A stretch of 59,990 nt of DNA, filler included, from Basidiobolus ranarum (lineage: Eukaryota), in assembly GCA_040143965.1 (NCBI GenBank). It is 9 parts of 9 records of this genome, joined end to end, with 100 filler letters (N's around TTAATTAATTAA, not from the genome) between each part and the next. Parts side by side here need not be neighbours in the genome. Positions count along the whole stretch, not along the records: positions 46,788 to 53,340 come from JASJQH010001296.1; 8 more parts are not named here. One strand, written 5' to 3'. The translations under genes and the position numbers were made by a program. Position 1 is the first letter of the stretch; every line of letters begins with the position of its first letter. The notes beneath the pieces were generated by a model. The model was not told the DNA's origin, searched no databases, and saw only the letters and a program-made list of their open reading frames with translations. Below, in pieces: positions 33,447 through 59,990 of the stretch.

Positions 33447-34242
33447 CTTTAAATCATTGGAATACCAAAAATGCACAGCAGGTCATAGTAAAAACATTAA
33501 ACAACCAGAAATAAGATCCTTATCTTGGCACCATATGTTGAAAACTTGACCATAACCACAAATGATTTAGGAGCACTTAATCTGACAAAAAAAGGCTTAT
33601 CAAACTAATCTCAAATGACTGCTATGGGAGAATTAAGTTTTTCTCTTGGAGTTCATATCAAGCAAGAAAACCCAATCAGAAAATCATGCTGAATTAGCCT
33701 AATTTGTCCTAGACATCCTGGAGTGCTTCAATATGAAGATTTGCAAGCCTATACCAACTCAAAGGCTCCCATTGTAAAATTTATCAAATTTTCATCTTAT
33801 TAGGCCTAAAATAACTCATATCAAAGCCAGGTGCTCACTTAGCTATTCATGGTGGGTAGTTGTATATAATTGTTTGAACACATCCAGATATTGCTGTGGC
33901 AAGGGGAACCATTAGCTAATATCTCATAAATCCAGGATATGAGCACAAAACTGCAGCAAAACAGATATTCAGATACTGAAAAATGTGGGTTTATTGCCCT
34001 AATTGATAGAAATATTAATTAGATCTATCTGACCAATTTTCACTATTTTCTCAATACTTCTTGAGATCACCTCAAATTTACCCCTGCTTAACAGGCATGT
34101 TTGTTATGATCTAAGCATGTGCAATGGTCCTGTTCTGTAGCAAACTATAAATAGGACAAATGCAATTCAATTAAACTTGGGTGTTTAATTCACAAATTCA
34201 AATCTTTTCCAAAACACCTCCAATTCCCTTAAATACTTTCAG
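33447..34242 (+). mobile_element. Copia family B RT fragment fused to a partial family B LTR (~33980-34242)
   Basis: Homologous to 21400-21970 (reverse complement) and to the LTR at 35482-35836. Confidence 0.8.
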
Positions 34243-34390
34243 TTATTCATGCCAGATATGACAAACTCATTTTTATCAGCCTTATATACTGATGATGTTA
34301 TTATATCAACTAATAACTTGAAGATTTTGGAGAAAACCAAATCCAACTTATCTGCCAAGTTCAAAATGACTGATCTTGGTGAACTGATAT

Positions 34391-35356
34391 TGTAGTATGG
34401 GATAGAGGTGTTAACTTACTCTATCTTTAAAGGGTAAAGACACATTACAGTATGCCAATAGCTTGAAGACTTTCTGAGAAAATATTTTTTCTGATGATAG
34501 ACTATCTAGAATCTTCAATACTACAAGGGTAGATCAAACTCTGGTTGTTTCTCTGACTTGGAGTCTGAAGAAAAAACTATAATTCTTTAAGATTGGCAAA
34601 GACTTTGATTAAGAGTGAAGTGTATTTTATGGCTGTATAAGTGAAGATTACTATAAACAAATCAGAACAACAATCTTCAAAAATCAAGCCTAGTTGAGTT
34701 GCAATAGGAATCTTTATTATCCTACTATGATACATGGTAGAATAACTTGTTGAAGAAAGGATAAGAATATGGTGCAGTTTTGGATGGTGCCATGGCTAGA
34801 AGCTTTTTCACTAGAGGGAAGGGTTGCTTATAGAAAGAAATAGCTTAGATCAAATGCTATAAATTGGTGGCTGAGTATGAATACTCTGAGTGGGGGCTAA
34901 GCATCAAAGTGCCAATAGGATCACTAATATAGCAGTTGTGGCTTCAACACCTCACACATATCAGCATAAATTACTGTGGCAGATCTGTGCAACATTTGAA
35001 GAGAATCAGTTGGCTGGTTCAAAAGTTAGTACTAGTTTTGTGAGTATCTTGAGGTCCTGAATTCCTGGGTTCTAAATATATGCTAGTGTTGATTTTTGAG
35101 ATGGCAATTTTGAAATGGTTGTAGCTCCCCCAATTATGTATCAAATCTTATGAATTGTGCATACTTGCAAAGCTCTAATTCAGGAGTTTACAATCAAAGT
35201 TAGAGTTACTGTAATCAGCCAAATATTGATGTGACCATGATCAATCAAATGTTCCTGTTCTTTTTCTTAATCTGTAAAAGTATTTCAGATAGCTATATAT
35301 TATGTTCTCCCTGCTAATTATGTGCAAGACATTATTGGAATACTTCCAACACTACA
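34391..35356. mobile_element. 966-bp solo-LTR-like insertion (TGTAGT...ACTACA) with near-perfect 4-bp TSD ATAT/ATGT
   Basis: Removing it restores the RT sequence GAACTGATGTACTATCTTG (compare 46301-46320). Confidence 0.75.
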
Positions 35357-35481
35357 ATGTACTATCTTGATATTTAAACTACGATAGATAGAATTACTAA
35401 AGCAATGACTTTAACCCAGTCTAAATAATCTATATATACTAAAAAAGTTGTAAGTAGATAAATATATTCCAATATCTACCC

Positions 35482-35836
35482 TCTTGAAATTAGATAAATA
35501 GCTACCGCAACTCATTATTTAGTAGTAGTATATTCACATTCTGATTATTTAGCACTCAATTCTGCCATTTAAAATGTGTGTTTATTGCTCTAATTGATAG
35601 AATTATCAATCAGATCACTTTTACCAATTTTCACTATTTTCTCAAAACTCTCCTAATCATCACAAATTTTCGCCCATGCTTAACAGGCATGTTTGTTATA
35701 ATCTATGCACATCCAATGGTCCTATTTTGTAGTAAACTATAAATAGGACATATTCAATTCAATAAAACTTAAGTATCTAATCCGCAATTGCAAATCCTGT
35801 CTATAACACTTCCAAATCCCCTAAACACTCTTATCA
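35482..35836 (+). mobile_element. Solo LTR, copia family B, TSD TACCC
   Basis: TACCC at 35477-35481 and 35837-35841. The sequence matches 20540-20891 (reverse complement). Confidence 0.9.
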
Positions 35837-36120
35837 TACCCCAATAAAGGCAAATCTTAACTTGACCAAAAATGGCTCAAATCACATGTTGTTGGACTCA
35901 AATGAAATCCAGAAATTATCTGGTCAATCCATGGTTGGCTGTTTGATGAATACCATGGTTGCAACATGGCCAGATAGTTCATATGCTGTGGGAGTTATGC
36001 TTCAATATTTTCAAAGTTGTGGATCCCATCAAATCATACCAATTCAGTGGATTTTCAGACATTCAAAGGTACTGTGGATCTATACTTAAAGTACTTATAT
36101 TCTGGATCCAACTTTGATCT

Positions 36121-36471
36121 TGATAAAAGTGTTTAGGGGATTTGGAAGTATTTTGGACAAGGGTTGGATTTGTGAATTAGACACTTAAGTTTTATTAAAT
36201 TGAATATGTCCTATTTGTATTTTACTATGAAATAGGACTATTAGACATGCTTAGATCATAACAAACATGCCCATTAAGCATGGGGAAAATTTGAGGTGAT
36301 TTGGATGAAATTTGAGAAAATAGTGAAAATTGGTAAAAGTGATCTAATTGATATTTCTATCAATTAAAGCAATAAACACATGTTTTTGAATGACAGAATT
36401 GGGTGCTACATAATCAGAATATTAATAAACAAACTGCTAAATAATGAGTTGCTATTTACCTAATTTCAACA
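36121..36471 (-). mobile_element. Solo LTR, copia family B, TSD GATCT
   Basis: TG...CA ends, with GATCT at 36116-36120 and 36472-36476. Excision restores SGSNFDLMGYSDA. Confidence 0.93.
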
Positions 36472-37239
36472 GATCTGATGGGTTATTCAGATGCAAATTG
36501 GGAAAGAGACATTGGTGACAGAAGATCCACAACAAAATACTTATTTCTTTGCTGCAATGGAGCTATTTCTTAGGATTCCAAGAATAAGCCTACCATAGAA
36601 CTTTCAACAACAGAAGCAGAATACATGGCTGCCTGGGAAGCGACAAAAGAAACAATATGGTTAAGAAAATTCCTACCAGATTTAGGCTTTTCTCAAAATT
36701 TACCAACTACAATATTTCAACACAATCAAGGTTGTATCCAATTAGCCTAAAATCCCATGTTTCATAATCAAAGCAAACATGTAGATATTAGACATTGTTT
36801 CATTAGAGAGGTGATAGAAAATAAGTATAATTATCTAACTATTACATTAGAGAGGTCATGATTGCTGATAGAATAACTAATCCATGAGCTAGATGGAAAT
36901 TTGAGAAATTTAGACCTTTACTGGGGTTAGTTTATATGACTATTTAGTTGGGGGAGACTGTTGAAATTGGCCTTGCCTAAGCACCTATATAGTCACATAT
37001 AGCTTAGTACTTAGTTATTTTATAATACACTATGATATAATTCATTATTCTCAATCAGAACTTTCTTGGAATATTTTTACAAACTCAGAAGTTCTCAGAT
37101 ATATAGAGTAGCCCCAAACTTTGCATACATGTTTTGGGGACCTTCCTTAACACATTCTACATGTATTCACATCTCAACAAAACTATTGATGACAACTTTT
37201 AAGTCATTTAATAAGTGAAAATTGCCAATTAATCTGATT

Positions 37240-38254
37240 CTACAAAACATGAACACATGTGTTTTCAAAGAAACCTTGACTTTTGAAATTCTGGTAGTGA
37301 TATCCATCAAGCATATTAGTAATACCATCAGCTTTATGGTGAGTACTTTGGTACTGGATCAATGATGTATATATGGGTGATTTCATTAAAACTTCAAGAC
37401 AGGGAATCAATGGTATGTATGCCAAAATGAACAATATTTAACTGATTCAGTGATTGCCAATGGTGTGCAAAAGTATATAACTTCAGGTTTTTCAGATCAC
37501 CAGTGAAAGCCAAACATCCATTTGGATACAAAGGTAGTTTAATCACTAAAGGATTATAAGTCATATGATTGACAAGTATTTTCCACTTGTACCAGGTCTG
37601 TGGCAAGCAACAGTTGCCAATCAACTGTGGTAAAAGTGTAAGAAAACCAATAAACACTTGCTTGATAAGATTAGCTTGAACTCTCCACTCCTCAATAATC
37701 AAAGCTGCTTCCTTTAATGTCAGTGTTATGAGTGAACTAATGCTTGCAAATCACAAAGAGTCCATTACAAGACTGTCATTGTCTTGTTCGACTTTTGATA
37801 TTCTACCATCAGAAGCAGAATAACTAAGTTGAACACCTAGCTGCATATCCTTAAAGTTGTCTGGATTGACTGGTATAATCAAAGTTGCATTTCCACCTAC
37901 ATTATGCTGGGCATATAACTATGGTAACTCCATAGTACCTGACTTTCAGCAGTGTTATCAAAACTTTGCGGTAAAGCACAGCCAGTGGACTTGGTGGGCA
38001 CAACTAAAGTCAATTTTAGGCACTTATTACTATTTACATTCACCAGGCTTTGTACAGTGACCATGCTTGTGATAATTTTCTCTATGGAGTCTCTGGCTTT
38101 CATAGCACAAGAATTTGTGACTATAATAGTAGGGCTTCTTTAAACATTTGTATTTTGACTTTATAAGGATAATGTAGAAAAAAGAACACTTCCTATGTAA
38201 GGGTTGTATTTCAGGCATATCACAACAATATCATCAGCCAATTCTGCGACAGGG
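37240..38254 (-). mobile_element. Decayed N-terminal part of a CACTA/CMC-like (Tnp2) transposase
   Basis: PLYPNGCLAFTGDL and YIPLIPCL...YQ...NMLDGYHY resemble the C.N.C..F.G, YIPL.PRL and D..DG..Y motifs of fungal Tnp2 transposases. Confidence 0.65.
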
Positions 38255-38514
38255 TCACAGATGAGACATCAGGGGATTTACAAGTTTTTCTGGTAGTGTA
38301 TGGTAATTATGGTGTATTGTGAGCTGTTTCAAAACCACTTCATTAAACTAAGTTTACCAACTGAAAATTTCAATGCCATTCCAAAATTTTTCAAAATCAA
38401 GTCAAAATTGGCTTTGAAGCAAAAGCCTGCTGGCACAAAAGGAAAAAAAACCTGCTAGAGCACATGACTTGATTGATGAGCAATCAGGCAGCCAATTAAC
38501 CCCTTTGGAAGGCA

Positions 38515-40021
38515 TTAACATGCTGGAAACTAACTCAGGTAATGACAAATTGTTAATCAGTTTACCAGATGTGTGCCTTTCCAGCCATAGTGCAAACTAA
38601 GAGATTATAATCCCCTAATTATGTAGTAAGTCAGTAGTTGAGCAAAGTTCAACAGAAACACCATCAAGACCATCAGTTTCCAAAATGCCTACTTTGCCAA
38701 CTATGGTAAACCCCTCTGTAGACAATTTAAAAAGAAATATTACAACATGGGGATATCAGGGAGGGCACCATAATGCTTTGTGGGCTATCATAAGTAAAAA
38801 CTATAAAGTTGCCATACAGGCCATAACAAGCAATAATGCCACAAAACAGCAACTAATGCCATGTTCTGAAGGAACTGGTCATCAGTTTGAGAGTCACTCA
38901 ACAATGCTAAAAGACCTTCAGAATGCTTTATTTGAGCAAGAGCAACATGATGCTATCTCCATTTATTCACATATGGTATTCCAATCTATCCCACATCATA
39001 CATACAACTGTCACTATGACAATCTAGCAGAGCAAAATATGAGTAGGAACATTAAGCCTACACAACAACCCAAAATTGCTGTGTCATGTGAAATCTCACA
39101 GAAAAACTAGCAAACCCAAAGACTCTAAATGACAGAGTTACCGTCACTTGCTCTAAAAATGAATGGTTTAACACTTTGGAAACTGTGTGGAGTTATGGAA
39201 AAACCAAAACAGAGGAATTAATTGATGAGCTGTATAGCATTCTACATCCACTTTAGAAGGCATTGACATGCCAGGAACTAACTCAAGTAACAATGAAGCA
39301 ATAATCAATCACCAGATGTGTTCCTCTCTAGCAATAGTGCAGGTGAAGAGATTACAATCCCACAATTATATAGTAAATAAAACGTTGAGCAAAGTTCAAA
39401 AGAAACACTATCAGGACCATCAACTTCCAAAATGACAACTTTGCCAACTATTATTCACCCCTCTGTAGACAAGTTGGATAGAATCATTACAATATAGAAA
39501 TCTTAGTCACAACACCATTGTCATTTGTATGCAATCACAATTAAAAACAACAAAGTTGCTACACAAATCATGAGAAGTAGTAACACTGCAACACTTCAAT
39601 TACTGCAGCATTCTGAAATGACTCGTTAACATTTATAGACTCACTCAAATACAATATAAAACCTACAGAATGCTACATGTGAGCTATAGTAACATGTTGT
39701 TCTTTCTGTTCATTCCCACATGGGATTAAATTCTATCCCACTCCATTTATACTAATATCACTATTACAATATATCAGAGTGGAATCAGTGTTTGACCATT
39801 AGGCCTATGTAACAACCTGAAATTGCTTAGGCATACAAGAGTAGAAATCTTGTAGGAAAACTAGCATACCCACAGACTCTGAATGTTAGAGCTGATGTAA
39901 CTTGCTCTGCTTATAAATGGCTTAACATCTTGGAAACTGTGTAGAATGTTGCCACAATCACCTCAATTTAAGCCAATTATGGAAAAACCAAAAACCAGGC
40001 ATTACTCTGAAGGTTCTTGAC
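38515..40021 (+). repeat. Two diverged ~750-bp tandem units of an unclassified repeat
   Basis: ACATGC..GAACTAACTCA starts near 38519 and 39266. A third copy lies at 23700-24570 (-). Confidence 0.75.
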
Positions 40022-40121
40022 NNNNNNNNNNNNNNNNNNNNNNNNNNNNNNNNNNNNNNNNNNNNTTAATTAATTAANNNNNNNNNNNNNNNNNNNNNNN
40101 NNNNNNNNNNNNNNNNNNNNN

Positions 40122-42831
40122 GCCATGGTAAGTTGATTCTTTGAATTCTAAGCAATAGCTCTATTGCAGCCAAGAAATAAATATCCTGTTGAAGATCTCC
40201 TGGCTTCAATTTTTCTTCCCCTATTTTATCTGAATATCCCATTGGATCAAAGTTTGATCAAAAATATGTATATTTAAAGCACAGATCCACACAACCTTTC
40301 AAATATCTGAAAATCCACTTAACTGCTACAGTACAATCCAATCTGTGATTTTGAAGATATTGGCACCTAACTCCTACAGAATATGCAATATCTGGCTGTG
40401 TTCCAACCAAAATATATTCTACACTACCAACTATAGATTGATAAGGAAATTTCTGGCTTCCATTTGAATCCAAGAACATTGGATATGAGCTACATTTAGT
40501 CAAGTTAAGAGCTACCTCCATTGGGATATACATTGTATCACATTCTTTCATTTTAAATTTTTCAAGTATATCTAGGATATACTTAAACTGGTTCAAAGTT
40601 ATTGTTTTGGTATTTCTATATGTCTCAATTTGAATTCCAAGATAGTACATCTGTTTGCCAATATCAGTTATTTGGAATTCAACAGATAAGCTGGATTTGG
40701 TTTTCTCCAAAGTCTGCAAGTCATTGATTACTGTAATAAGGTCATCTACATATAAGTCTATTAAAACTTAGCTTGTCTTATCTGGCCTTGAGTATATACT
40801 ATAATTAGTATCACTCTTTCGGAATTTGAGTGTTTCCAAAAAAGCATCTATCTTGCTATTCCAAGCTCTTGCAGATTGTTTTAACCCTTAGAGCATTTTC
40901 CAGAGTCCGCAAGCTTTTTCAGGGCTTGCTGGGTCCACAAATCTATCTAGCCAGCTCATATAGATCTCCTCAGCAAGCTCATCACTCCAAAAGCAGCTTT
41001 AGCATCTATTTGATATATAATAATATGATATTTAGCTGAAATTGCTAAAATCAATTTAAATGAATTAAACTTAGCTATAGGAGTAAGAGTTTTTGTATTG
41101 TCAACTCCTATTATTTGCAAATAGCTTGTTGCTACTAGTCCAGTCTTGTAGCTCTCTATACTGCCATCAGTGTTGCATTTAACTTTAAACATCCATTGGC
41201 AGCCAATTAATTTTTTATCATTTGGTGAGTTGATTCAAATCCAAGTATGATGATCAATCCAAGCCTGGTGCTCATCAGCCATTCCAGATCTCAAAGATTT
41301 CATATGAGGGACATTTGTGGTCTCTTTTACAATCTGTGGTCATGTATTGGAGCTGTGCAGGCATGGGACCAATTTTCAGACTCAGTGATATCATCATCAG
41401 AGCTATATCTGATCCAATTTGTTCTCCTGATTTGGGATAAAGGAACTACAAACTCAAGCATTGTATTGGGCACTTCAATAAGCAGAATTTAGGGTGAATG
41501 GTCCACAGGAATGCCATTTTCTGCACTATTCTGGTTTGAACTATTTTGAATGATTGGTTTAGGAGATAGTAGAATTTTATCATTTTCTGAGGTCATTTTG
41601 GGTGAATATTTTTCCCTTTCATCAAACAATACATCCCTGAACATGGTTGACTTTGTAATATTGGTATCAGAGAGTCTGTAGACCTTATCTTGAGGAAAAT
41701 AACCCATAAATATTCATTTTGTATTCTTTGATAGGTATTCAGATCAATTGTTGATAATATTTTTGATGTAAGCAATGAATCAAAAGATCCTCAAATGTTT
41801 TACTTTAGATTTAACTCCAAACCATGCTTGATATGGTGTAGAGCTAGCCAGACTTCTACCAAACCTGCTATGATTAGATATATAGCTGTAGCAACAGGTT
41901 CTACTCAAAAAGTATGATATATATTTTGTGCATTTATCATATATCTAGCCATTTGTGTTATAGTCATGTTGGATTGTTCAGCAACTCCATTTTGTTGATG
42001 TGAATAAAAGCCAGTAGCACTTGATTAATTTCATGAACTTTGCAAAAGTTATTGAATAGTGTTGTAGTATATTCTCCTCTATTATCAATACATATTTACT
42101 TGATTCTAGTTCCAGTTTCAGTCTCCACAAGTGTTTTGAAATCTCAAAAGATATAGAGAGCTTCTTCTTTTCTTTCCATCAAGTGGATCTAAGTGCATCT
42201 TGTATAATCATCAACAAATGCAATTAAATATCTTTTTTCCAATAAAAATAAATCTTGCATAGGTCTTTACAAATCTGAGTGAATTAGATCTAACTTTTGG
42301 ACAGATTTGTTTAAACCAGAGCTCTTGAATGGTTGCCTGACTTCTTTTCCAAATATATAACCCCCACAAATTTCCATTTTGATTGGGGGGGTTAATTTAA
42401 ATTGTAGAAATTAGGCAATTTTTGATCATTTGGCTCCAACAACCAACCTAATATGGTCACATTCCATATGCCATAAATATTAGTTTCTTGATTGTAATAA
42501 ATTATGTTTACACATAAGCCTCATGGATTCCATGTAAGTTAGTAGAAGTTCTAATCCTTTTCTTCAAACACAAAACACCCCCTATTTTGATCAATGATGG
42601 TGCATCCTGGCTTATGAAAGTTAATTTATAGCCCTTCTGAGATGGCCTTGCATAGAGATATTGAATTCTTGGCAATATCTGGAACATGTAGTAAATCCTT
42701 CTAAGTATACACTTTCTCTTCAGTAGCACCAGTTGAAATAACTTTAATTGTTGCTATTCCAATGGCATCCAATGTGTGATCTCCAATGAAAACCTTTCTA
42801 ATTGGGATTTCTTCATAATCCACAAACCAAT
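40122..42831 (-). mobile_element. Decayed copia family A pol (protease-integrase-RT-RNase H start)
   Basis: LIHSDL, QQNGVAEQSN, FMGYFPQDKVYRL, FKVKCNTDGSIESYK and YVDDL in copia domain order. Confidence 0.9.
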
Positions 42832-43477
42832 CCCTGACAGAAATTTGAGGATTGTTTTTGTAAGAAAACCATCACAATTTTAATCTATTTTGGATTGACC
42901 ATTTACCAACCATCATAAAACCATCTAGTTAGATTTGTTTTGCTCAATTTTTCAGTTTCAGGATTGTAATTTCAAGATCTTACCAAGTAGTTGCATATGA
43001 TTGGCTACAATTTCAGAAAACTATGGATCAACACATGTGCAAACAATATAACTCAAATTTTAAACATTACCACTTGAATGCTAATTTGTTACCTTTGAAA
43101 TCCCTGCTTACTTCAATATATTCTCCTGAGTTTTTTTACAGAGTTCTTCAAACCCAAAGTTTTGGCTCATATCCAATATGTGTTTGTATCAATATCTCCA
43201 TCAAAGCCCATCATTGTATTAACATTGCTAAATCAACATTCTTCCAGCTATCTGGTGGATACCCTGCAATATTGTGCCATCCTGTATTAAGTTCTTCCCC
43301 GATATCTGCACAGTCAATACTAGACTGAATTTCAAGTTGAATGTTCTTCTTCTGAAGCAGCTTTTTTCATACTTGCACTTTATTTTGCTCTTCATAATTT
43401 TAAAAATCCTCCAATTTATTTTTGCATTGTTTGAGCATAATAAGAAAAACACTTTTGCTATTTTTATACATCCTGAT
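42832..43477. repeat. Unclassified element end (CCCTGACAGAAATTTGAGG...) abutting truncated copia
   Basis: Homologous to 26354-26668. It breaks the copia sequence exactly at AACCAAT|CCC. Confidence 0.7.
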
Positions 43478-43915
43478 TGTTGAGTTTCTAGGAGTCTGTT
43501 GGAAGTGGTTTGGAGATTAGAAAAAAATGGTGGTTTGCACTTATTGATTTATTGAGTAGAAAGTTGACATGTGTAATTTTATCAAGATGTAAGCAAACAA
43601 AGGTGTAGAATATGCTAAGGAAGGTACCAGGAGCATGTGCACAAAGTTTGCGGCCTCTAGCACAAGACTAAAAAATCTATATATCTCAGAACTTCTAAGT
43701 TTATAAAAATATTCTAAATATTTTTCAATTGAGAATAATGAATAATTTCTTGGTGAAATATAAGATAACTCAATACTAAGCTATATATGATGATATAGAT
43801 ATTAAGGCAATGCTAATTTCAACACTCTCCATCAACTGAATGGTAACATAAACTAATTGTAAGGAAAGTCTAAATTTCTCAAATTTCTGTCCAGCTAATG
43901 GTTTGGTTAATATAT
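43478..43915 (-). mobile_element. Copia family A 3' LTR (43478-43824) with PPT and RNase H end
   Basis: On the minus strand GATGGAGAG|TGTTGAAATTAGC. The upstream sequence matches the RNase H end at 36870-36950. Confidence 0.85.
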
Positions 43916-46687
43916 TTGAAATTGGCATTGTAAACTTGTGCTAGAAGCCCCACACTTTGCACACATGCCCCTGGGACCTTCCTTAACACATTCTGCACTT
44001 TAGTTTGTTTACAGCTTGACAAAACTATCAATGTCAACTTCCTCCTCAATAAATCAAAAAGTGAAAACCACCAATTTCTCTAATTCACCAAACCACTTCC
44101 AACAGGCTCCCAAGTACTTTAACAGGTTGTGGGCCCCAAGCTTGTACTCTCTGTATTGTCTACTTCTCTGATTTGTGAAACTTTTCCCACTTCTGATAAA
44201 TTGGATGGAACCAATTATCAAGTTTGGAAAATCAAAATGAAAATGCTGCTGCAAGAAAAAGAACTTTGGGACACTGTTGTAAGAGAAGAAAACAATGGAA
44301 AACTATCCAAAACCAAAGCTTTACTGCAGGTTAAAAAAGAACAAAGTGCCTTCATACAGTTTGTCTTAATGTTGAAGACAAATTTCTAATTCAATGTTCA
44401 CAAGCAAAGACTGCCAAGAAGGTATGGAAAGCCTTGGAAGACACCTACCAAATAAGTCCTGCTGCCAGCAAGATGTTTCTCAGAAGACAATTCTTTAATT
44501 TAAAGATGAAACCAGGAGAAGACATTAGATTGCTAATTATTAGAGTCACTAATTTAGTGGATGAAATGGAATGCATTGGAGTACCTGCTACTGATCATGA
44601 TATCATAGTTACAGTCTTCAATAGCCTGCCACACAAGTTTCTAAGCCTAGTAATGCCACTAGGAACAAGAACTGATAGTTTGACCTTAGATTATGTATTT
44701 GGCAGACTTTGGGATGAAGATTTATTCAAATTAGGATCCAACCAAATAAGGAGGAGTATACTTTAATAGGCTATCGGAAACCTTCCAATAAAGGTCAAAA
44801 TCAAGTTAAGTAGAAAAGTAATACATTCTGTGATTGCTGTAAAAGAACTGGCTATTTAAGCAAAGATTGCTATACAAGATTTGCAAAAGAAGAAAACATA
44901 CTGAATCTGGAAATGCAGCTTCAACAAAAAAACACTGGATCATATTTGCTCTTTCTATGATTACCAACTAGGATACTTGGATGTGATATATTGATTCTGG
45001 AGCCTCCAAACATTCCACAAATGAAAAACATTGGTTTGTGGATTATGAAGAAATCCCAATGAGACAGGTTCTCATGAGGAATGAGCAATGGGAGATGACT
45101 GCACATTGGATGCTATTGGAATGGGAACAATTCAAGTTAAAATAACTGGAGCTTTTGAAAAGAAAGTGTATACTTTCAAGGATGTACTACATGTTCCAGA
45201 AATTGCCAATAACTTAATATCTCTATGCAAGGCCATCTCAGAAAGGCTAAAATTCAATTTTGATAAGTCAGGATGCATCATCATTGATCAAAATGGGAAC
45301 TATTTATCTTTGGGACAAAAGGATCAAAGCTTATAAAAACATACATATAATCCAAGAGGTTATGAGCAAATATAAGTTATTTCAATCAAGAAACTATTCA
45401 TTTGTGGCATAAGAGATTTGGCCATATTGGATTTGATTATTTGAGCAAAATCATCAAAAATTACCTAATTTCAGGAATTCAAATTAACCTCTCAACTGCA
45501 ATAGAAATATGTGAGGGTTATATATATGAAAAACAAGCCAGGAAACTGTTCAAGAGCTATGGTCTAATCAAATCTGTCAAAAAAATAGATCTAATTCATT
45601 CAGATTTGTGTGGACCTATGAATAATTTTTTTTGGGTGGAAAACTATATTTCATCACATTTATTGATGATTATACAAGTTACACTTGGGTCTACTCTAAG
45701 GAAAGAAAAGAACAAGCACTCTCTATCTTTAGAGATTTAAATAGAAAATCAATTGGCTGCTAATGAGTGTTAGAAGTTAAATTCGACTCTGATGGCTGAT
45801 CACAAAGGTACAAGGATAGACTAGTAGCCAAAGGCTATTTCTAAACACCAGAAGTAACTTATACAAAAGCTTTTGCACCTGTAGCAAAGTTTTTTCCATC
45901 AAATTGATATTAGTAATTTGAGCTAAATATCAATTCATTACACATCAATAGATGTTAAAGCTGCTTTTTTAAGTAGTGAGCTTGCCAAGGAGATCTATAT
46001 GGACCAGCCAGATGGATATTTGGACCCAGAAAACCCTAAAACAGTTTGCAGACTCTGTGAAACACTTTAAGGGTTAAAACAATCTTCAAGAGTTTGAAAT
46101 AGCAAGATATATGCTTTTTTGAAAACAATCAAATTCCAAAAGAGTGATACTAACTATAGTATCTACTTCATGCCAGATAAGACAAACCTGGTTTTATTAG
46201 CCTTATATGTGGATGACCTCATTGTAGCAACCAATGACTTGAAGACTTTGGAGAAAACCAAATCCGGCTTATTTGCCAGATTCAAAATGACTGATCTTGG
46301 TGAACTGAAGTACTATCTTGAATTCCAAATTAAGATCAATAGAACTACCAAAACAATAACTTTAAGCCAGTCCAAGTGTATCCTAGATGTACTAAAGAAG
46401 TTTAAAATGGAAGAATGTAATCTAGTATCTACTCAAATGGAGACAAACCTCAACTTGACCAAAAATAGCTTAAATTATAGGCTCTTGGATTCAAATGAAA
46501 GCCAGATATTTCTGTATCAATTTATGGTTGCTAGTTTGATTTACATCATGGCTGGAACATGGTTAGAATATTACATATTCTGTTGGAGTTTTGTACCAAT
46601 TCTTCAAAATTATGGATCTGATCAAATCTTAGCAGTTAAGCAGATTTTCAGATATTTGAAAGGTCCTGCAGATCTGTTGTTGAAATA
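43916..46687 (+). mobile_element. Copia family A: deleted 5' LTR (to 44124), PBS GGTTGTGGGCCC (44125-44136), decayed gag-pol with internal deletion
   Basis: Gag KLDGTNYQVWKIKM, Zn knuckle C..C...G, protease IDSGAS, GAG-pre WHKRFGH, integrase IHSDLCGP and RT LYVDDLIV. Confidence 0.92.
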
Positions 46688-46787
46688 NNNNNNNNNNNNN
46701 NNNNNNNNNNNNNNNNNNNNNNNNNNNNNNNTTAATTAATTAANNNNNNNNNNNNNNNNNNNNNNNNNNNNNNNNNNNNNNNNNNNN

Positions 46788-46957
46788 ATTTATCATAGAT
46801 CTTGCCATTTCTATTATAGTCCTGTTAGCTCTTTCAGCAACTCCATTTTGTTGAGATGAATAGGGGGCAGTAGTTTATTGCTTAATTCCTTGAACTTTGC
46901 AAAAGTGCTTAAATAGTGTTGAAGTATATTCTCCACCATTATCAGTACGTATTTTCT
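46788..46957 (-). mobile_element. Copia integrase fragment
   Basis: Reads KKIRTDNGGEYTS..FKHFC..QGI...TAPYSSQQNGVAERANRTIIEMARSMI. Confidence 0.9.
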
Positions 46958-47138
46958 TCCTCCTCCTCCTTTCTTCTTCTTGTTTCTTCCTCCATTTTTT
47001 TTTTATCATCATATATATATTATTATTACGCAATTATCCATTACACCAATCCTCTCGCTATTTATCCTTCTTTATAACCCTTTTCCCAATTTCTTTCCCC
47101 AAACCATTTCATTTTTCATTCCCTTTTCTTTTTTTCCT

Positions 47139-49715
47139 CTACAACCATACGCTTTCGCACAGTATTTTTAGCTTTATATCATGTTCGTTGGACACTGACC
47201 ATAGAAAATCATTCCCTCTTGGAATTTCTGGATAATCTGTTTGAATATGTTGCCTTTTTATTATGTATTTATCCTTTATATAATTTTTTTTGTATATTTC
47301 ATACAAATTTTTATAATCTCTTCTAACAACATATGTACATACGGATCCTTTTTTCATATCGCTGTTTATTATTAAATCTTTTTTATTTGCCAGCTCTTCT
47401 ATTCTTTCGTCTTTTCCCCCAAACGTTTTACATAAAATATAACCAGAACATAAAATTTGTACAAATGTACTTTTTCTAAAAACATCATCTCCTATGTACA
47501 TATTTTTTATGTCATGACATTTTAGCGATTTATATATAGTTTCATACGTAACTCCCGCACAATTTACTAAAATATTTGACAATTCTTGTACGTACTCATA
47601 TTCTTTTCTTTTTGTACATATTTCTAATGCCAACAATCCTATATTTGTCATATATGCCTGGTCAAATTTTTCGTAATTTTTATGTCGGATATCTCCTCCC
47701 AACCACGTAATTAATGTTTGCATTGCTGCTTTATATTTTTCATCTAAAATATTATATACAAATGTAGACCTACAATTTATTTGTTTTATATATAATATCC
47801 ATTCTGCTCTTTTTTTTCTTGCACTTGGGTAATACAACTCTAAAAATAATGCTAAAAAACATCTAATTTCATTTGACATAGAACCATTTTTATATGTATT
47901 ATATACTATATCACACATTTTTTGCGATTCGCTGAATTCAACTATCATTTGAATTCTTTTTATAAAATCATTTGTAAACACCGACGATTTTATGTGATTC
48001 TGAAAAGTTTCCGTGAATTTTTGACGATCCCCATTTTTTATACATCTTTGACATACATAAAATAATTTTACTTCTTCATCAAATGGATTATCTTGTAAAT
48101 CCTTTTCTTCCGTAATATACATCATATATTTATCATAAATATTTCGCCTCGTTGTTAAAAGTTCTGATAATTGGTTTATTAATTCATCTTTACGAATTGT
48201 TTTCTTTTCGTTGTATCCATACTCGCAATATTCTAAATTTAAATCTTTAGAATAAAGTTCGGCTTCATCTATATTTAAATTGTTAATAAATAATTCAAAT
48301 ATAAATAATTCTGGGTTTGTTATATATCCATATTCTTCTTCTAGTTTCAACAACCATTCCCCAAGACCATTTATATTATTTTTCCATATATACCATGTGG
48401 ATATTTTCTGTACGAAATCATCTTTTTCTTCGGAATTTAAAAATATTTCTTCCAATTGGTCAACATCATCTTCATATTTCAAAAAATAGATTATATCCAA
48501 TGCCTCTCTTGATTTTTCATATCCTTTCTCCAACGATTTTATAAACATATTTTCGGCGTCATCATAATTTTCTTCTATGATATATTTTTTCCCCATATAA
48601 TATTCATATGACCCATTACTACTAATTTTGAATTTGGATATAAAATTTTCATAAATTGTCTTTTTAACGATGTCTGCACTAGATCCAATTAATTTGTGTC
48701 TAATTAAGGCATCAAATGCATCTTTATGTCCCTGAGAAGCTGCTCGTTCAAACCAATCCATTCCCATTTTGTAATCATCGAATATTTTTGTTTTTCCCAT
48801 TCTGTACTGACATTCCATATTTCCGTCTGTTGCTGGTATTAAAATGTATTCGTGAATTAAATATAAATTTTCCGAATACGATATCACGTCAAAATTTCTA
48901 ATTTGTTCATCAGCAAAATTGGTGCTTTCCAAAAATTTAATTAATTTATTAATACTAGGGCGCATTTCTGCTTTGGGATTTATGCATAATTTAATAATAT
49001 CACAAAAAAATGTTGGGACATAAATTGGATAAGTTAATTTATATTGCTCTGATGTTATATACTCTCTGATATGAACATTTGAATCTGTTTCGTAAAATGG
49101 TGCAAATCCATTTGTTACCAATTCATATAACAGCATTCCGAGGCTATAAATATCAGATTCTTCTGTTGGTTTATTTAACGGGTTTTTTATTCTTTCTGGT
49201 GACGTCCAACGAAGTGTGTTGCCATATACCATTTTATCTGTCGAATCTAAAGATACACTAAGACCAAGATCGGATATCTTAGGTATCATTTGATCTGTTA
49301 TAAGAATATTTTCGGCTTTTATATCTGAATGGACTAATTTTTTGTTGTGCAAAATCTCTACACCTTTGCATATATTTTTTGCAATAATTCTTTTTCCTTC
49401 CCATCCAATAATATTTCCTTTTGTATTTATAAAATCTAATAAATCTCCCCCTGAAATATATTCCATAACTATATTAATTTCGTTTGCATCTTTGTAAACC
49501 CCATACATGTTTACAATATAACCCTGATTCCAAAATTCCATAAGATTTTTTATTTCTTTTTCAACTAATATAGACATATTAGTGGTTGATTCCCTTTTTA
49601 TCTGTTTAATTGCAACGTTTCTCCCATCCATTGTTCCTTTCCATACGATTCCAAATCCTCCCGATTTAATAATATATTCTTTAACGATACTATTTGAATT
49701 AATTTTTGTATTCAT
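47139..49715 (-). CDS. TKL-type protein kinase (non-RD) with Sel1-like repeats and a long helical C-terminus, 858 aa
   Basis: SGGFGIVWKG, VAIK, alphaC EKE, HSDIKAEN, DLG, RWTSPE and SDIYSLG motifs. Sel1-like segments CQYRMG...WFERAASQGH and YYMGKKY...FIKSLEKGY. Confidence 0.9.
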   Translation of the reverse strand: MNTKINSNSIVKEYIIKSGGFGIVWKGTMDGRNVAIKQIKRESTTNMSILVEKEIKNLMEFWNQGYIVNMYGVYKDANEINIVMEYISGGDLLDFINTKGNIIGWEGKRIIAKNICKGVEILHNKKLVHSDIKAENILITDQMIPKISDLGLSVSLDSTDKMVYGNTLRWTSPERIKNPLNKPTEESDIYSLGMLLYELVTNGFAPFYETDSNVHIREYITSEQYKLTYPIYVPTFFCDIIKLCINPKAEMRPSINKLIKFLESTNFADEQIRNFDVISYSENLYLIHEYILIPATDGNMECQYRMGKTKIFDDYKMGMDWFERAASQGHKDAFDALIRHKLIGSSADIVKKTIYENFISKFKISSNGSYEYYMGKKYIIEENYDDAENMFIKSLEKGYEKSREALDIIYFLKYEDDVDQLEEIFLNSEEKDDFVQKISTWYIWKNNINGLGEWLLKLEEEYGYITNPELFIFELFINNLNIDEAELYSKDLNLEYCEYGYNEKKTIRKDELINQLSELLTTRRNIYDKYMMYITEEKDLQDNPFDEEVKLFYVCQRCIKNGDRQKFTETFQNHIKSSVFTNDFIKRIQMIVEFSESQKMCDIVYNTYKNGSMSNEIRCFLALFLELYYPSARKKRAEWILYIKQINCRSTFVYNILDEKYKAAMQTLITWLGGDIRHKNYEKFDQAYMTNIGLLALEICTKRKEYEYVQELSNILVNCAGVTYETIYKSLKCHDIKNMYIGDDVFRKSTFVQILCSGYILCKTFGGKDERIEELANKKDLIINSDMKKGSVCTYVVRRDYKNLYEIYKKNYIKDKYIIKRQHIQTDYPEIPRGNDFLWSVSNEHDIKLKILCESVWL

Positions 49716-49743
49716 GTTGTTATATTAACTTAACGGTATTATT

Positions 49744-51057
49744 ATGGATATTGCACAAAAAATTTTCGATATTGCTTTACAAATTCGTGATGCTTATTCC
49801 AAAATGGAAGATGTACGCAAAGAATGTAAATTATTTGTGGAAAATGTAAATCATATAGACTTTGTTATTGGGCGAATAAAAGATGATGCAAATTTGCGTA
49901 ATTATACAACAGAAGAGTTGTATACAGTTGAATCGGAAATGGGAAGAGGACTTACTGCAATTACAACATACATGGGTTATTCTAAAGCGATACAAGTACT
50001 AAAAGCAAATGCATTAGAAAAGACATTAGCGGATATTAACAGAAACGTAGAAAGGGGTTTACTGTTAATACATATGCATGCTACCGCGTCAATAGTTCCA
50101 AGCATCAAGTCTTTTATGGAAGAATGTCAACGCAATATGCAATTATATATTTACAAAAGTAAAAAACTTGCCATTGGAGCTATTCAGAATAAAAAAGGGA
50201 AGCATGTTCAAGTACAACTTAACGCAACCAATTTTACGTTTAAAAAATCTTTGAAAAATCCAGAAACAGGAGAAGAAATAGCACAGGAGGGATTGTTTAT
50301 GGAATACGAAGAAGTTAGGGTAATCGAAGTAAAAGGAATTTCCGGCAATCAATCATCTTCGGCACTAACAGAAGAAGAGATATTTTATAAAGAGTTGGCC
50401 ATTAATAATATACTCAGAAGTCCTAGAACATTGGCATATTATGGTGCATTTTGTGAAAACAATAAAACATTTATGGTTGTTGAAAAATTTGGAAATAAAA
50501 CGCTATCCGATTTATTAACAGATGGTTCTTGTAATGTAGATGGTAAAATCAAATATCAAATTGCACTAGATATATGTAAAGGAATACATTATCTACACAA
50601 AATAGATATTATTCACAGATATTTGTCTAGTCACGTTATTTTAGTTGGTGAAAATTACCGCATAAAAATTTCAGATTTCCATAGGAGCAAATTTTCGGAC
50701 AAAACTAGTAGTATGGGAAGACCAATATCAAATTTAGAAACGGAAAGGTGGGAACCACCAGAATATTTTGATTTACAAAAGGAAAATAAAAAAGGGGGAG
50801 ATATATATTCACTCGGACTTATATTAAGAGAACTGGCTACGGGTTTAAAACCATTTGATACAGTAAGCGATGATGAAAATATAATTAAAATAATATCAGA
50901 AAGCGATGATATACTAAAATTAAATCCTATTCCAGATAGTATTAATAAAGATATTACAAATCTGATTGTCAAATGTTTATCTATAAATCCCGATGACAGA
51001 CCGTTTTCAGGTAGGGTTATACAAATATTAGAAAATATGGATATAAAAGAGTTTTAA
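49744..51057 (+). CDS. MLKL-like protein: N-terminal four-helix-bundle-like domain, brace and pseudokinase, 437 aa
   Basis: Amphipathic N-terminus MDIAQKIFDIALQIRDAYSKMEDVRKECKLFVENV. The kinase fold lacks the Gly loop and beta3 Lys (VRVIEV), and has HRD->HRY (aa 291-293) and DFG->DFH (aa 311-313). Confidence 0.8.
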   Translation: MDIAQKIFDIALQIRDAYSKMEDVRKECKLFVENVNHIDFVIGRIKDDANLRNYTTEELYTVESEMGRGLTAITTYMGYSKAIQVLKANALEKTLADINRNVERGLLLIHMHATASIVPSIKSFMEECQRNMQLYIYKSKKLAIGAIQNKKGKHVQVQLNATNFTFKKSLKNPETGEEIAQEGLFMEYEEVRVIEVKGISGNQSSSALTEEEIFYKELAINNILRSPRTLAYYGAFCENNKTFMVVEKFGNKTLSDLLTDGSCNVDGKIKYQIALDICKGIHYLHKIDIIHRYLSSHVILVGENYRIKISDFHRSKFSDKTSSMGRPISNLETERWEPPEYFDLQKENKKGGDIYSLGLILRELATGLKPFDTVSDDENIIKIISESDDILKLNPIPDSINKDITNLIVKCLSINPDDRPFSGRVIQILENMDIKEF

Positions 51058-52046
51058 ATATATTTCTTTTTTTACCAAGTACAAAAATATACAATCTGGT
51101 AATTTTAATACCAAATTATATGATACGTAATGACATCGATTAATAATTTTAACTATTGCATTATAATTATATTATATATTGTGAATTGTTTTTTAAAAAT
51201 GCATTTGTACATATATATAAATATATTTAAATCATAATTTTCAGACCATTAAATATGTTACAGATAAATTAAAAATACGTTTAATTTAATTATGGAATAT
51301 GTACCGTAATATTACAAAATATTTGTTATAATATATTTTTGTTACGTAAAATAATTTAAGAATATTATTTATTTTCGTACATTTTACCAATGCTTATTTT
51401 ATTTATATTGTCTGATTAAATATATAATTACCTAAAACAAAATATTTTTTGGGAATTTTATATAAAACTAATTAAATATGAAACATTGTTTTATACAATA
51501 GACTTTAAATTATGATCGGCATTATTAATATATGATCCACTAGATAAAACACAAAATTGGTTTAAATGTGTTAATATGTAATAAATAACAATATCATTTA
51601 GTAATATGATATATTTATATATAGTATACAAAAACCATACGGTAAAATTTATACCAATAAATATATAACATAAAAAATAAATTTAATTATTCATCTTAAT
51701 ATTGTCATAACATATGATTATATAAAAAATTTTTGATTAAATATTTTTTGTATATAATAATAAATAATTTAATAGTTTTATATATACAAAAAATAACCAT
51801 CTGCAGTTTGCATAATAAAATAAATATCATGTTAAATTTTAATTATCTATACGTAATTGTACAAATAAATTTATAATTAAAATCTAGATAATTATTACAA
51901 TATATACCAAAAAGTTTATGCAAATTAGAATTTATAAACCAAAAATATTATTTTTGAAAAACATAATGTATGTACAATTTAGCAAATCCCATTTTTAAAA
52001 TTTAAAATTGCGATTGTATGGCCATTTATACACACAAAAATGTATA
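51058..52046. other. ~1-kb extremely AT-rich non-coding spacer between convergent genes
   Basis: Almost entirely A/T, with no credible ORF. Confidence 0.7.
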
Positions 52047-53340
52047 TTATGACGATGAGTTATATTCTCTAAGTCTGAATTCTGATTTGAGGGAAAGTAA
52101 TGCAGTTGACGTAGGTACCAAAGATCTTTTAATAAGGGAACATAATATATAAGCCTTCTGTTCAATAGCCATTTGTTTATAAGTTTCAACGGAAACAAGT
52201 CCGGGTCCTTCGAGCTTAAAAGTTTCATAATATATATTATGCAATTGGGCAGGAGAAATCTTGCCATGCTTAATTTTATTTATTGTAGTTTCGTTGAAAA
52301 TAACCTTATCTCTATCAGAGTTAACTCCTTTGAATCTCATGATAATAGGAGTTTCTTCACCAGTAGATTTATTTATGGTGTATATACAATAACATTTTGG
52401 GGCAATGGATATACAGTATGGATCTTCATGCCCTTCGGGTACTTCGTCTAAAACTTCTTCTCTAAGCTGACCACATTCTTCTCCAAATAGCTCGGAAAAA
52501 TTTTTGCGTAACTGTTTATATTCGGTTAAGCTCATAACTAACGAATCCGTATCCGTTAAAATTTTTGTTTGAACTTGAGAAAGTAAAGATATATACATAT
52601 CTCTTCTTGCATAAGCATAAATTAATATACCCCATATTGTGGGAACCATTACTTTTGGATGAGCAATCTTACCTATGGCTATATCAGTTCCGCAGTATGA
52701 AAACCAATAATCCGAATCTTTGACAACAGCTCTGAAAAAATTTTCCTTTTGTTTGTTGCTTTGAATAATTTCTTTTCTAATAGTATGAGGACGTTGGATA
52801 AATTTGCCGGATAAACTATTCATGGCTAATTTTAAACATTCACGCAAAGACGGATTATATCTATGATCTTTTGTAGTTTTCCATTTATCTTGCTGTTGCT
52901 TGGCATTTACGATAGGTAAGATAAAACTCGTGAAAATATTATTTCTACTATTATCCCAAATATATCCTTCATGAACAATTATGTCGCAATTTGTAGCCTC
53001 CAATAGTTCGATGTCAACATTAGTAATCCATCTGTTCATTGGTCCATCATACTTCCAATTCAAAGAATCCCCTGCGTTATCTCTAACATTGGGAATAATT
53101 ATTGGATCTACAGTTTGACCATTAATGGTAACGTTATAAACCCCTATTTTTCCTTTGCGGTATGTCTTAGTTTTTTTAGGCATACCTATTGGAAACTTAT
53201 GTTTCATCATCACATATGGATATAAAGATATTACGTCAACCATTGCTACCGGTTTGTCGTATATTCCTCCATGAAAAATTTCTGATCTGCCTCCTATTGT
53301 ACTTTGTCGAATTGCCGAATCTTGTTCGGGATTTAAAATT
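52047..53340 (-). CDS. Protein-primed family B DNA polymerase, polymerase domain (5'-partial)
   Basis: The frame is open to the contig end: IRQSTIGGRSE (GGR motif), motif A DVISLYP, motif B KLAMNSLSGKF, PTIWGILIYAYAR, motif C TDTDS, APKCY and FKGV. Confidence 0.9.
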
Positions 53341-53440
53341 NNNNNNNNNNNNNNNNNNNNNNNNNNNNNNNNNNNNNNNNNNNNTTAATTAATTAANNNN
53401 NNNNNNNNNNNNNNNNNNNNNNNNNNNNNNNNNNNNNNNN

Positions 53441-53905
53441 TGATCAGTGGTAGGTACTCCAATGCATTCCATTTCATCCACTAAAATAGTGACTCTATTA
53501 ATTAGTGATTTAATGTCTTCTCCTGGCTTCATCTTTAAGTTAAAGAATTGTCTTCTTATAAACATCTTGTTGGCAGCAGAGCTTATTTGGTAGGTGTCTT
53601 CAAAGGCTTTCCACACCTTCTTGGCAGTTTTAGCTCTTGAACATTGAATTAACAATTGATCTTTAACACTAAGACAAATTGTGTTAAAGGCACTTTGTTC
53701 TTTTTTAACCTGGAGTAATACTTTGGTTTCAGCCAGTTTTGCATTGTTTTCTACTCCTACAACAGGGTCCCAAAGTCCTTTTTCTTGCAGCAGCATTTGC
53801 ATTTTAATTTTCCAAACTTGATAATTGGTTCCATCCAATTTTTCAAAAGAGGGAAAAGTTCCATAAATTTGAGAAGTAGATATTACAAAGAGTGCAGTAC
53901 ACCTG
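53441..53905 (-). mobile_element. Copia family A gag fragment
   Basis: EKLDGTNYQVWKIKMQMLLQEKGLW...RRQFFNLKM, closely related to 44170-44600. Confidence 0.9.
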
Positions 53906-58877: not shown

Positions 58878-59990
58878 ATGAAATTCTCCGCCCCCGCTCT
58901 TCTTTTCGTTATCTCTGCTGCTTGCTCTGTCAGCGCTGGTGTTGGCTCCTATGATACAACTGACCTTTCTGGAAGCCTAGGAGACAATGGTGGAGGAAAT
59001 GGTGGTGGTGCTGGAGGATATGGCTCTGGTAATGGCTCAGGCGGAAACGGTGGTGGCAATGGCGACGATAACGGTGGTGGAAACGGCGGTAACGGCGGTG
59101 GTGCTGGAGGATATGACTCTGGCAATGGATCTGGCGGTAACGGCGGTGGTTCCGGAGGCAATGGAGGAGGAAATGGTGGTAACGGTGGCGGTGCTGGAGG
59201 ATATGACTCTGGCAATGGATCTGGCGGTAACGGCGGTGGGTCTGGAGGCAATGGAGGAGGAAATGGTGGTAACGGCGGCGGTGCTGGAGGATATGACTCT
59301 GGCAATGGATCTGGTGGTAACGGAGGAGGCAATGGCGGTGATAATGGTGGTAACGGTGGTGGAAACGGAGGCAACGGCGGTGGTGCGGGAGCTTACGACA
59401 CCGGAAATGGTTCAGGCGGTAATGGAGGAGGAAATGGTGGTAACAATGGTGGGGTTGGAGCCTACGGTCCAGGAAGTGGTTCAGGTGGCAATGGAGGAGG
59501 AGGAAATGGTTCCGGTGGCAATGGAGGTGCTGGTGCTTATGATACTGGAAATGGTGCTGGTGGTAATGGAGGAGGTAATGGTGGTGGACCTGGTGGAAAT
59601 GGCGGAGGAAACGGTGGCAACGGCGGTGGTGCTGGAGGATATGACTCCGGAAATGGATCTGGTGGCAACGGAGGAGGCAATGGTGGTGATAATGGAGGCA
59701 ACGGTAGTGGAAATGGTGGTAATGGCGGAGGTGCTGGAGCTTATGACACCGGAAATGGCTCCGGTGGCAACGGAGGAGGAAACGGCGGTGATAATGGTGG
59801 TAATGGCGGTGGTGCTGGAGGATATGACTCTGGCAATGGCGCAGGTGGTAATGGTGGAGGCAATGGTGGCTTCGGTGGTGGTTCTGGAGCTTTTGTTTCT
59901 GGATTTGGTGCGGGTGGTCTTGGTTGTGGAAATGGTGGTGGTGCTGGTGGTAATGGTGGAGGAATTGGCGGCAACGGTGGAGGAGCTGGT
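58878..59990 (+). CDS. Secreted Gly/Asn-rich repetitive protein (3'-partial)
   Basis: ATG at 58878, signal peptide MKFSAPALLFVISAACSVSA, and repeats of GGNGGGAGGYDSGNGSGGNGGG. No stop before the window end. TATAAAA near 58773. Confidence 0.88.
   Translation, partial: MKFSAPALLFVISAACSVSAGVGSYDTTDLSGSLGDNGGGNGGGAGGYGSGNGSGGNGGGNGDDNGGGNGGNGGGAGGYDSGNGSGGNGGGSGGNGGGNGGNGGGAGGYDSGNGSGGNGGGSGGNGGGNGGNGGGAGGYDSGNGSGGNGGGNGGDNGGNGGGNGGNGGGAGAYDTGNGSGGNGGGNGGNNGGVGAYGPGSGSGGNGGGGNGSGGNGGAGAYDTGNGAGGNGGGNGGGPGGNGGGNGGNGGGAGGYDSGNGSGGNGGGNGGDNGGNGSGNGGNGGGAGAYDTGNGSGGNGGGNGGDNGGNGGGAGGYDSGNGAGGNGGGNGGFGGGSGAFVSGFGAGGLGCGNGGGAGGNGGGIGGNGGGAG

Follow-up and report, generated by a model that had tools for sequence, protein, structure and literature searches.

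A pseudokinase with a predicted helical N-terminus and possible MLKL architecture, encoded beside an active-looking kinase gene in a Basidiobolus ranarum assembly

The P0001 Locus

The window analyzed here, the whole 59,990-nucleotide stretch taken from Basidiobolus ranarum assembly GCA_040143965.1, joins nine contigs by means of artificial linkers. The contig at 46788-53340 (JASJQH010001296.1) encoded P0001, a protein of 437 amino acids (aa) in which a predicted helical N-terminal part precedes a pseudokinase domain, and which is considered below as a possible, very divergent protein of MLKL architecture. The linkers at 46688-46787 and 53341-53440 form the left and right boundaries of this contig, and the real genomic context of P0001 is confined to these 6553 bases. 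An in-frame stop lay five codons upstream of the first ATG of the open reading frame (ORF), and 437 open codons would arise by chance with a probability of ~1e-15 at the base composition of the contig. The gene was arranged head-to-head with the gene of an active-looking kinase, the two ATGs being 28 nt apart. The features of P0001 were as follows:

49744..51057, + strand: intact, intronless ORF of P0001, 437 aa (helical N-terminal part and pseudokinase domain)
49744..50193, + strand: N-terminal ~150 aa, predicted all-helical (low-confidence models)
49756-50052, + strand: weak MLKL_N-like signal, aa 5-103 (Pfam PF22215)
50206..51054, + strand: TKL/TK-like pseudokinase domain, aa ~155-437 (Pfam, PDB matches, alignments A1 and A4)
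50281..50301, + strand: degenerate Gly-rich loop AQEGLFM, with A180 and E182 for Gly (A4)
50332..50334, + strand: kept beta3 Lys, K197 (VIEVK, in the VAIK column)
50392-50394, + strand: kept alphaC Glu, E217
50614..50637, + strand: catalytic loop HRYLSSHV, with Tyr293 for Asp, Ser295 for Lys and Val298 for Asn (A4)
50674..50763, + strand: activation segment, from DFH (311-313) to PPE (338-340)
50704-50712, + strand: T321, S322 and S323, candidate phosphosites in the activation segment

The full-length ORF and the motif coordinates given in the original prediction were exact: HRY (aa 291-293) occupied 50614-50622, DFH was found at aa 311-313, and TSSM (50704-50715) fell within RSKFSDKTSSMG (aa 314-325), the segment that contains T321/S322/S323.

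The Pseudokinase Domain

The C-terminal half of P0001 is a pseudokinase. Residues 196-426 matched the Pfam families PK_Tyr_Ser-Thr (E 3.8e-30) and Pkinase (E 4.5e-30), and the threshold for the protein kinase superfamily was exceeded with both families (Pkinase, 105.4 bits with a cut-off of 31.7; PK_Tyr_Ser-Thr, 105.5 bits with a cut-off of 23.1). The closest solved structures among the best 60 of 1986 PDB matches were CTR1, ITK, TNNI3K, ABL and BRAF (E 3e-19 to 8e-16).

Residues were scored in alignment A4, which contained P0001 aa 150-437 and 25 kinases from the searches; columns were counted at >=80% agreement. Both glycines of the Gly-rich loop were replaced, the first by A180 (G in 24/25 kinases) and the second by E182 (G in 25/25). 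In the catalytic loop, the catalytic Asp was replaced by Y293 (D in 24/25 kinases), the Lys by S295 (K in 25/25) and the Asn by V298 (N in 25/25), while the Gly of the DFG motif was replaced by H313 (G in 24/25). The domain is classed as a pseudokinase because Y293, S295 and V298 stand in place of the catalytic Asp, Lys and Asn; without these three residues P0001 cannot, to judge from its catalytic loop, transfer phosphate.

Other kinase positions were kept. These included H291 and R292 of the HRD motif (H in 25/25 kinases, R in 23/25), D311 of the DFG motif (25/25), P339 and E340 of the APE motif (25/25 each), and D353, G358 and R419 (25/25 each). The original prediction of a kinase fold that has lost its Gly loop and catalytic Asp (HRY) and that carries DFH for DFG was thus borne out in A4, whereas the beta3 Lys that it took to be missing is present: K197 fell in the VAIK column (K in 24/25 kinases) and E217 in the alphaC Glu column (E in 25/25). 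Both residues were placed in the same way in A1, a smaller alignment. Since the K197-E217 pair and the DFG Asp are kept, the domain may bind nucleotide. MLKL likewise has no catalytic Asp but retains the beta3 Lys and alphaC Glu; human MLKL has GFE at the site where P0001 has DFH.

Of the 26 residues that separate DFH from PPE, seven were Ser or Thr (S315, S318, T321-S323, S329 and T333), a share that is ordinary for kinase activation loops. The original prediction had matched both this loop and the segment FYKELAINNILRSPRTL to human MLKL. Both aligned equally well to Arabidopsis CTR1, and they are therefore generic kinase traits rather than marks of MLKL.

The N-Terminal Helical Part

As the original prediction had it, P0001 is not a truncated, kinase-only form: the N-terminal part of ~150 aa precedes the pseudokinase domain and is predicted to be all-helical. 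The helical prediction comes from low-confidence AlphaFold2 models, run on the single sequence without an alignment, with a pLDDT of 34 for whole P0001 and 56 for aa 1-155. The model of aa 1-155 was all helical (helices 3-47, 56-77, 79-87, 91-100 and 102-151). In the linker, a helix was placed around aa 121-151 by these models only. With a model of this quality, fold searches returned only generic helical bundles and are uninformative either way; a Foldseek search of aa 1-155 against PDB gave no match at E<=0.001, the best being the Tar/Tsr four-helix bundles (E 0.18).

Pfam MLKL_N (PF22215) was the sole cell-death-type family matched by the N-terminus. The match ran colinearly between P0001 aa 5-103 and profile positions 2-102 of 142 and was stable across three boundaries, with E = 0.013, 0.017 and 0.035 for the three N-terminal cuts (14-15.5 bits; cut-off 27) and E = 0.15 for whole P0001. 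MLKL_N was found in 0/3 of the helical control segments taken from the neighbouring kinase gene.

Two look-ups in the ESM Atlas, one with aa 1-160 and one with the whole protein, were counted as a single source. For aa 1-160, the six top-ranked rows listed carried MCAfunc, DUF7792, MLKL_N and/or RPW8, the top row having a score of 0.87 with 186/256 features in common. The first structural neighbor of the Atlas's own model of aa 1-160 was the Rx_N part of plant NLRs (TM 0.54, aa 1-116). For whole P0001, ranks 1-3 were chordate MLKL clusters (0.99, 237-240/256 features), rank 4 was a Basidiomycota kinase cluster of 449 aa with MLKL_N in 23% of members, and rank 10 was a plant kinase cluster of 459 aa with MCAfunc in 23% of members. 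Altogether, the Pfam match and the two Atlas look-ups are three weak, partly dependent leads that point to the MLKL_N / four-helix-bundle (4HB) superfamily.

P0001 as a Possible Protein of MLKL Architecture

On these leads we put at about even the chance that P0001 has an MLKL architecture in very divergent form. Its N-terminal part would then be a helical bundle of the MLKL_N / HeLo-like / RPW8 (4HB) kind, followed by a short helical linker and a TKL-type pseudokinase, and we infer that the N-terminus is homologous to MLKL_N. On the model of the MLKLs of animals and plants, the pseudokinase domain would restrain the helical bundle, and an incoming signal would free the bundle to act on a membrane. 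The most likely signal would be phosphorylation of the S/T-rich activation loop at one or more of the seven Ser and Thr residues named above, and it would most likely come from the active non-RD kinase whose gene starts 28 nt away on the opposite strand. That this kinase is the activator of P0001 seems rather unlikely, and any functional link or interaction between the two proteins is putative. Membrane or cell-death activity, pore formation and a phospho-switch at T321-S323 would be ascribed to P0001 purely by analogy.

Several results weigh against this reading. The MLKL_N scores of P0001 (12-15.5 bits overall) were far below the Pfam cut-off, and an unrelated, surely spurious FabMG match reached E 0.005 in the N-terminal Pfam scan. 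At E<=10, the listings contained no other 4HB-clan family (HeLo, Helo_like_N, RPW8, Rx_N). For HeLo (PF14479) and Helo_like_N (PF17111) this held in four scans that took the N-terminus or whole P0001 as the query; the HMMER filters in these scans drop most matches with E>0.1, and a distant kinship could have escaped them. The line-up with the N-terminus of human MLKL, proposed in the original prediction, was not reproduced: phmmer with aa 1-160 against PDB at E<=10 gave seven chance-level matches, none of them MLKL. Likewise, no chain named MLKL was present among the best 60 of 1986 PDB matches to whole P0001, and within those matches the pseudokinase domain showed no specific kinship to that of MLKL. 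The Atlas look-ups are leads without statistics.

No relatives of P0001 were found in the libraries searched. An exhaustive phmmer search with aa 1-200 against 1.84 billion representatives returned P0001 itself only, as did a word-based search with aa 1-160 at E<=10 (90 candidates). With the whole protein, the word-based search retained 7/4651 candidates, namely P0001 itself and six distant kinases of 25-30% identity. The match between P0001 and the oomycete multi-kinase protein P0009 was confined to the kinase domains, and a Pfam scan found no MLKL_N in P0009 or in P0020. Among IMG/VR viral contigs, 0/8 pattern matches for P0001 were confirmed; among JGI metagenomes, 1/172 stretches matched, a 25% identical kinase piece (L001) that was not used.

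The Neighboring Kinase Gene

The gene paired with P0001 and the spacer between the two were as follows:

47139..49715, - strand: neighboring gene, 858 aa, an active-looking non-RD kinase followed by a tail of ~590 aa (Pfam E 7e-49)
49716..49743, no strand: 28-nt spacer between the divergent ATGs of P0001 and the neighbor, GC 21%

The neighbor kept all catalytic residues tested in alignment A3: K37, E54, HSD131, K133, N136 and DLG149-151. It is a non-RD kinase, since HSD stands in place of HRD; non-RD kinases are tied to innate immune signaling. Its tail contained one Sel1/TPR-like unit within aa 270-469 (Sel1 E 2.6e-4, TPR_27 E 5.6e-5), while the ~390 C-terminal residues (aa 470-858) gave no Pfam match above noise. 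Self-BLAST found no internal repeats, and BLAST of the P0001 N-terminus against the neighbor found nothing below E 3. In 28% GC DNA, 858 open codons would occur by chance with a probability of 6e-30. The best relative of the neighbor was a Rhizophagus clarus multi-kinase protein (E 5.5e-57), with a Gigaspora margarita kinase more distant. The neighbor protein was missing from its own match list when used as the query.

Content and Composition of the Contig

The remaining features of the contig were as follows:

46788..46958, - strand: copia-type integrase fragment, 83-85% identical to 41932-42101 on the preceding contig
51058-52046: 989-nt spacer of 16% GC, on which the 3' ends of P0001 and PolB converge
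52047..53340, - strand: protein-primed DNA polymerase B (PolB) gene (Pfam DNA_pol_B_2 E 1.2e-21; PHROG 1907 E 1.7e-27)

The PolB gene, 1 kb from P0001, has motifs that look intact; its N-terminal half is missing because the reading frame is still open where the contig ends. In IMG/VR viral contigs, 0/1 pattern match for PolB was confirmed. The gene may mark a Maverick/Polinton-like or linear-plasmid-like element. Of the features that jointly mark a Maverick/Polinton element, namely a protein-primed PolB, an integrase, capsid genes, an ATPase, a protease and terminal inverted repeats, only the PolB was present on the 6.5-kb contig; the integrase fragment at its left end belongs to a copia family.

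In composition the contig stands apart from the others of the window. Its GC content was 28%, against 33-41% elsewhere in the window, and its CpG observed/expected ratio (o/e) was 1.02, against 0.59-0.73 on five gene contigs and 0.04-0.06 on three transposable element (TE) contigs. The dinucleotide distance from this contig to every other contig was 135-232, compared with 27-69 among the five gene contigs. GC at third codon positions (GC3) was 0.21-0.22 in the two kinase genes and 0.26 in PolB (a computed value reassigned by hand to the correct codon position), against 0.37-0.48 in host exons. P0001, the neighbor and PolB were all long intronless ORFs, whereas host genes appeared only as exon-sized ORFs. 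The outlier composition argues that the kinase-PolB segment is foreign or mobile in origin, or that it comes from another organism, while the copia family held in common with the preceding contig argues for the same genome.

Alternative Explanations

P0001 could instead be an ordinary TKL pseudokinase, specific to its lineage, whose N-terminus is an unrelated helical or coiled-coil region. It would act as a scaffold or an allosteric regulator, for example of the neighboring kinase, with no role at membranes or in cell death; its MLKL look would then amount to helices, a dead TKL kinase and ~450 aa alone. We consider this somewhat unlikely. The kinase domain is generically TKL/TK-like, and the low-confidence AlphaFold model of the N-terminus resembles long helical hairpins; yet the N-terminus alone, without the kinase part, still reaches MLKL_N/MCAfunc/RPW8 clusters in the Atlas, and the three clusters nearest to the whole protein are MLKL clusters, out of very many kinase clusters. 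The Pfam MLKL_N match is at noise level, although it is colinear from residue 5 across ~100 residues. An ordinary pseudokinase would also fit with the neighbor's best relatives, multi-kinase proteins of R. clarus and G. margarita, which belong to lineages with large kinase expansions, and with the 'MLKL family' label, which in the available text of PMC8778642 is attached to Sel1-bearing Glomeromycotina kinases.

Two further alternatives concern the origin of the contig. The gene pair could belong to a mobile or virus-like element, Maverick/Polinton-like or some other protein-primed replicon, that carries it as cargo and has integrated beside a copia element. P0001 would then work for the element and not for host immunity: it might lyse or kill cells, serve as an addiction module or act as a decoy for a host pathway. 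Such an origin is compatible with an MLKL architecture of P0001, and we hold it to be improbable. The outlier GC, CpG o/e, dinucleotide distance and GC3 of the contig fit such an element, but they could also reflect another AT-rich organism in the sample. The three long intronless ORFs, the start codons 28 nt apart and the nearby protein-primed PolB with intact motifs also favor cargo, and the copia fragment shared with the TE of the preceding contig argues for integration in the same genome; on the other hand, the PolB gene is possibly an unrelated neighboring insertion, the 6.5-kb contig holds no capsid, packaging ATPase, protease or terminal repeat, and no relative of P0001 or PolB was confirmed in IMG/VR viral contigs.

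It is very improbable that the contig comes from another organism, such as a co-sequenced AT-rich eukaryote (for example a Glomeromycotina-like fungus or an amoeba), or that the gene is a non-expressed relic, in which cases the biology would not be attributable to this genome. Composition again fits such an origin, as Glomeromycotina genomes have a GC content as low as that of this contig, and the neighbor's best relatives are Glomeromycotina proteins; P0001 is moreover a singleton on a single contig of 6553 bases. However, the shared copia integrase fragment, at 83-85% nucleotide identity, ties the contig to the preceding one, and the chance odds of intact 437- and 858-codon ORFs in 28% GC DNA argue against long decay.

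If the MLKL architecture of P0001 and an element origin of the contig were both granted, the pair could form a compact two-gene necroptosis-like cassette. Its sensor would be the active non-RD kinase with the repeat tail and its executioner the MLKL-like pseudokinase, both controlled from the 28 nt between their divergent genes, and the cassette would be carried by a mobile or virus-like element that has a protein-primed PolB and a foreign composition. We regard such a cassette as quite unlikely. A fungus-like eukaryote would then possess a mobile death module running from kinase to MLKL, with an executioner domain that has no sequence relative in current databases.

Comparison with Known Systems

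Taken as a possible protein of MLKL architecture, P0001 resembles vertebrate MLKL in size (437 aa, against 459-493 aa in the Atlas MLKL clusters), in the order of its parts (helical N-terminus, linker, TKL-type pseudokinase) and in that MLKL is the nearest Atlas cluster to the whole protein. It differs in that its N-terminus has no detectable pairwise similarity to MLKL and scores under the MLKL_N cut-off, in that its kinase domain is not closest to that of MLKL among the best 60 of 1986 PDB matches, and in that its linker has room for about one helix. The MLKL linker consists of two brace helices. Poxviral MLKL-like decoys are MLKL-related pseudokinases that are not known to carry the N-terminal bundle; P0001 resembles them as a pseudokinase possibly carried by a mobile or viral genome and is unlike them in having a full N-terminal part. 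Like RIPK3 and MLKL, the neighbor and P0001 pair an active kinase with a dead one that has a helical N-terminus. The two are encoded side by side here and, as a difference, the neighbor's long tail contains one Sel1/TPR-like unit.

Vertebrates and seed plants are both known to have MLKL-type proteins, and the plant architecture is described in the available text of 10.1101/681015 and PMC10951266. With the plant MLKLs (AtMLKL1-3, wheat Pm13) and the plant MCAfunc/DUF7792/RPW8 helical domains, the likeness lies in the Atlas, in which the clusters nearest to aa 1-160 are plant MCAfunc/DUF7792/MLKL_N/RPW8 clusters, but the P0001 N-terminus had no sequence match to any plant protein in the searches, and P0001 comes from a fungus-like genome. 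Among fungi, some HELL domains are fused to kinase or pseudokinase domains according to the part of a review that was available (PMC12881547), and MLKL_NTD-like N-termini are abundant in Basidiomycota NLRs in the accessible text of 10.1101/2022.03.16.484565. The fungal HeLo/HELL proteins and basidiomycete 'BaMLKL' N-termini are approached by the Basidiomycota kinase cluster at Atlas rank 4, with MLKL_N in 23%. In contrast to them, P0001 had no Pfam HeLo or Helo_like_N match at E<=10, and its contig held no amyloid motif or NLR partner; the partner of P0001 would be a kinase.

In the Glomeromycotina, the available text of PMC8778642 places homologues of the TCDB 'MLKL family' (1.A.105) in this group only, with Sel1 repeats. 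These Sel1 TKL kinases are similar in build to the neighboring gene, whose best relatives are from R. clarus and G. margarita; as far as that text goes, they are unlike P0001 in having Sel1 repeats and apparently no MLKL-type N-terminus, while P0001 has a helical N-terminus and no Sel1. In the accessible portions of the literature on MLKL in Rhizophagus and Glomeromycotina, no protein like P0001 was described, and supplementary lists might hold fused fungal proteins.

Proteins of MLKL architecture have been noted before in fungi, and P0001 is a probable but unproven new case, unusually isolated. MLKL-type executioners are established in animals and plants, and the fungal HeLo/HELL domains that are known are mostly controlled by NLRs or amyloids. 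In the parts of the literature available on fungal HELL-kinase/pseudokinase fusions, reviews mention the fusions and no functional study of one was found. From the simple, testable pair of P0001 and the adjacent active kinase one could learn whether a kinase governs a helical killer domain by way of a pseudokinase in organisms other than animals, and whether kinase-pseudokinase death modules occur as cargo of mobile elements. Heavy caveats apply to P0001, namely its single 6.5-kb contig of uncertain origin, the lack of relatives in the libraries searched and the low-confidence models.

Other Contigs of the Window

The nine contigs of the window were joined in order of descending length, from 6600 down to 6550 bases. 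The eight 100-nt linkers were identical and of the artificial form N44-TTAATTAATTAA-N44:

6601-6700, 13297-13396, 19986-20085, 26669-26768, 33347-33446, 40022-40121, 46688-46787, 53341-53440: linkers

Any neighborhood that crosses a linker is artificial because the linkers join unlinked contigs. The gene content of the window is fungus-like. The IDO, chitin-deacetylase, Lon, TPT, GH47 and bZIP exons were on contigs other than that of P0001; IDO, chitin deacetylase, Lon and other genes were accordingly rejected as neighbors of P0001, as assembly linkers intervene.

Three contigs were nearly without CpG (o/e 0.04-0.06): 20086-26668, 33447-40021 and 40122-46687. Fragments of copia reverse transcriptase (40258-40719 and 46119-46739) were found on two of these three. 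The CpG loss on the TE contigs fits heavy methylation and deamination of repeats. Long inverted matches of copia-like pieces, 79-88% complementary, paired 40399-40992 with 45966-46559 and 44143-44597 with 53441-53896; such matches within and between contigs indicate one TE family in several diverged copies.

At the end of the window, 58878-59990 (+ strand) contained an ORF that was open at the window end; its product begins with a signal-peptide-like stretch and continues for >340 aa as Gly/Asn-rich repeats (GGNGGG, AGGYDSGNGSG). This ORF matched no Pfam family, and its DNA repeat units were spaced in multiples of three.

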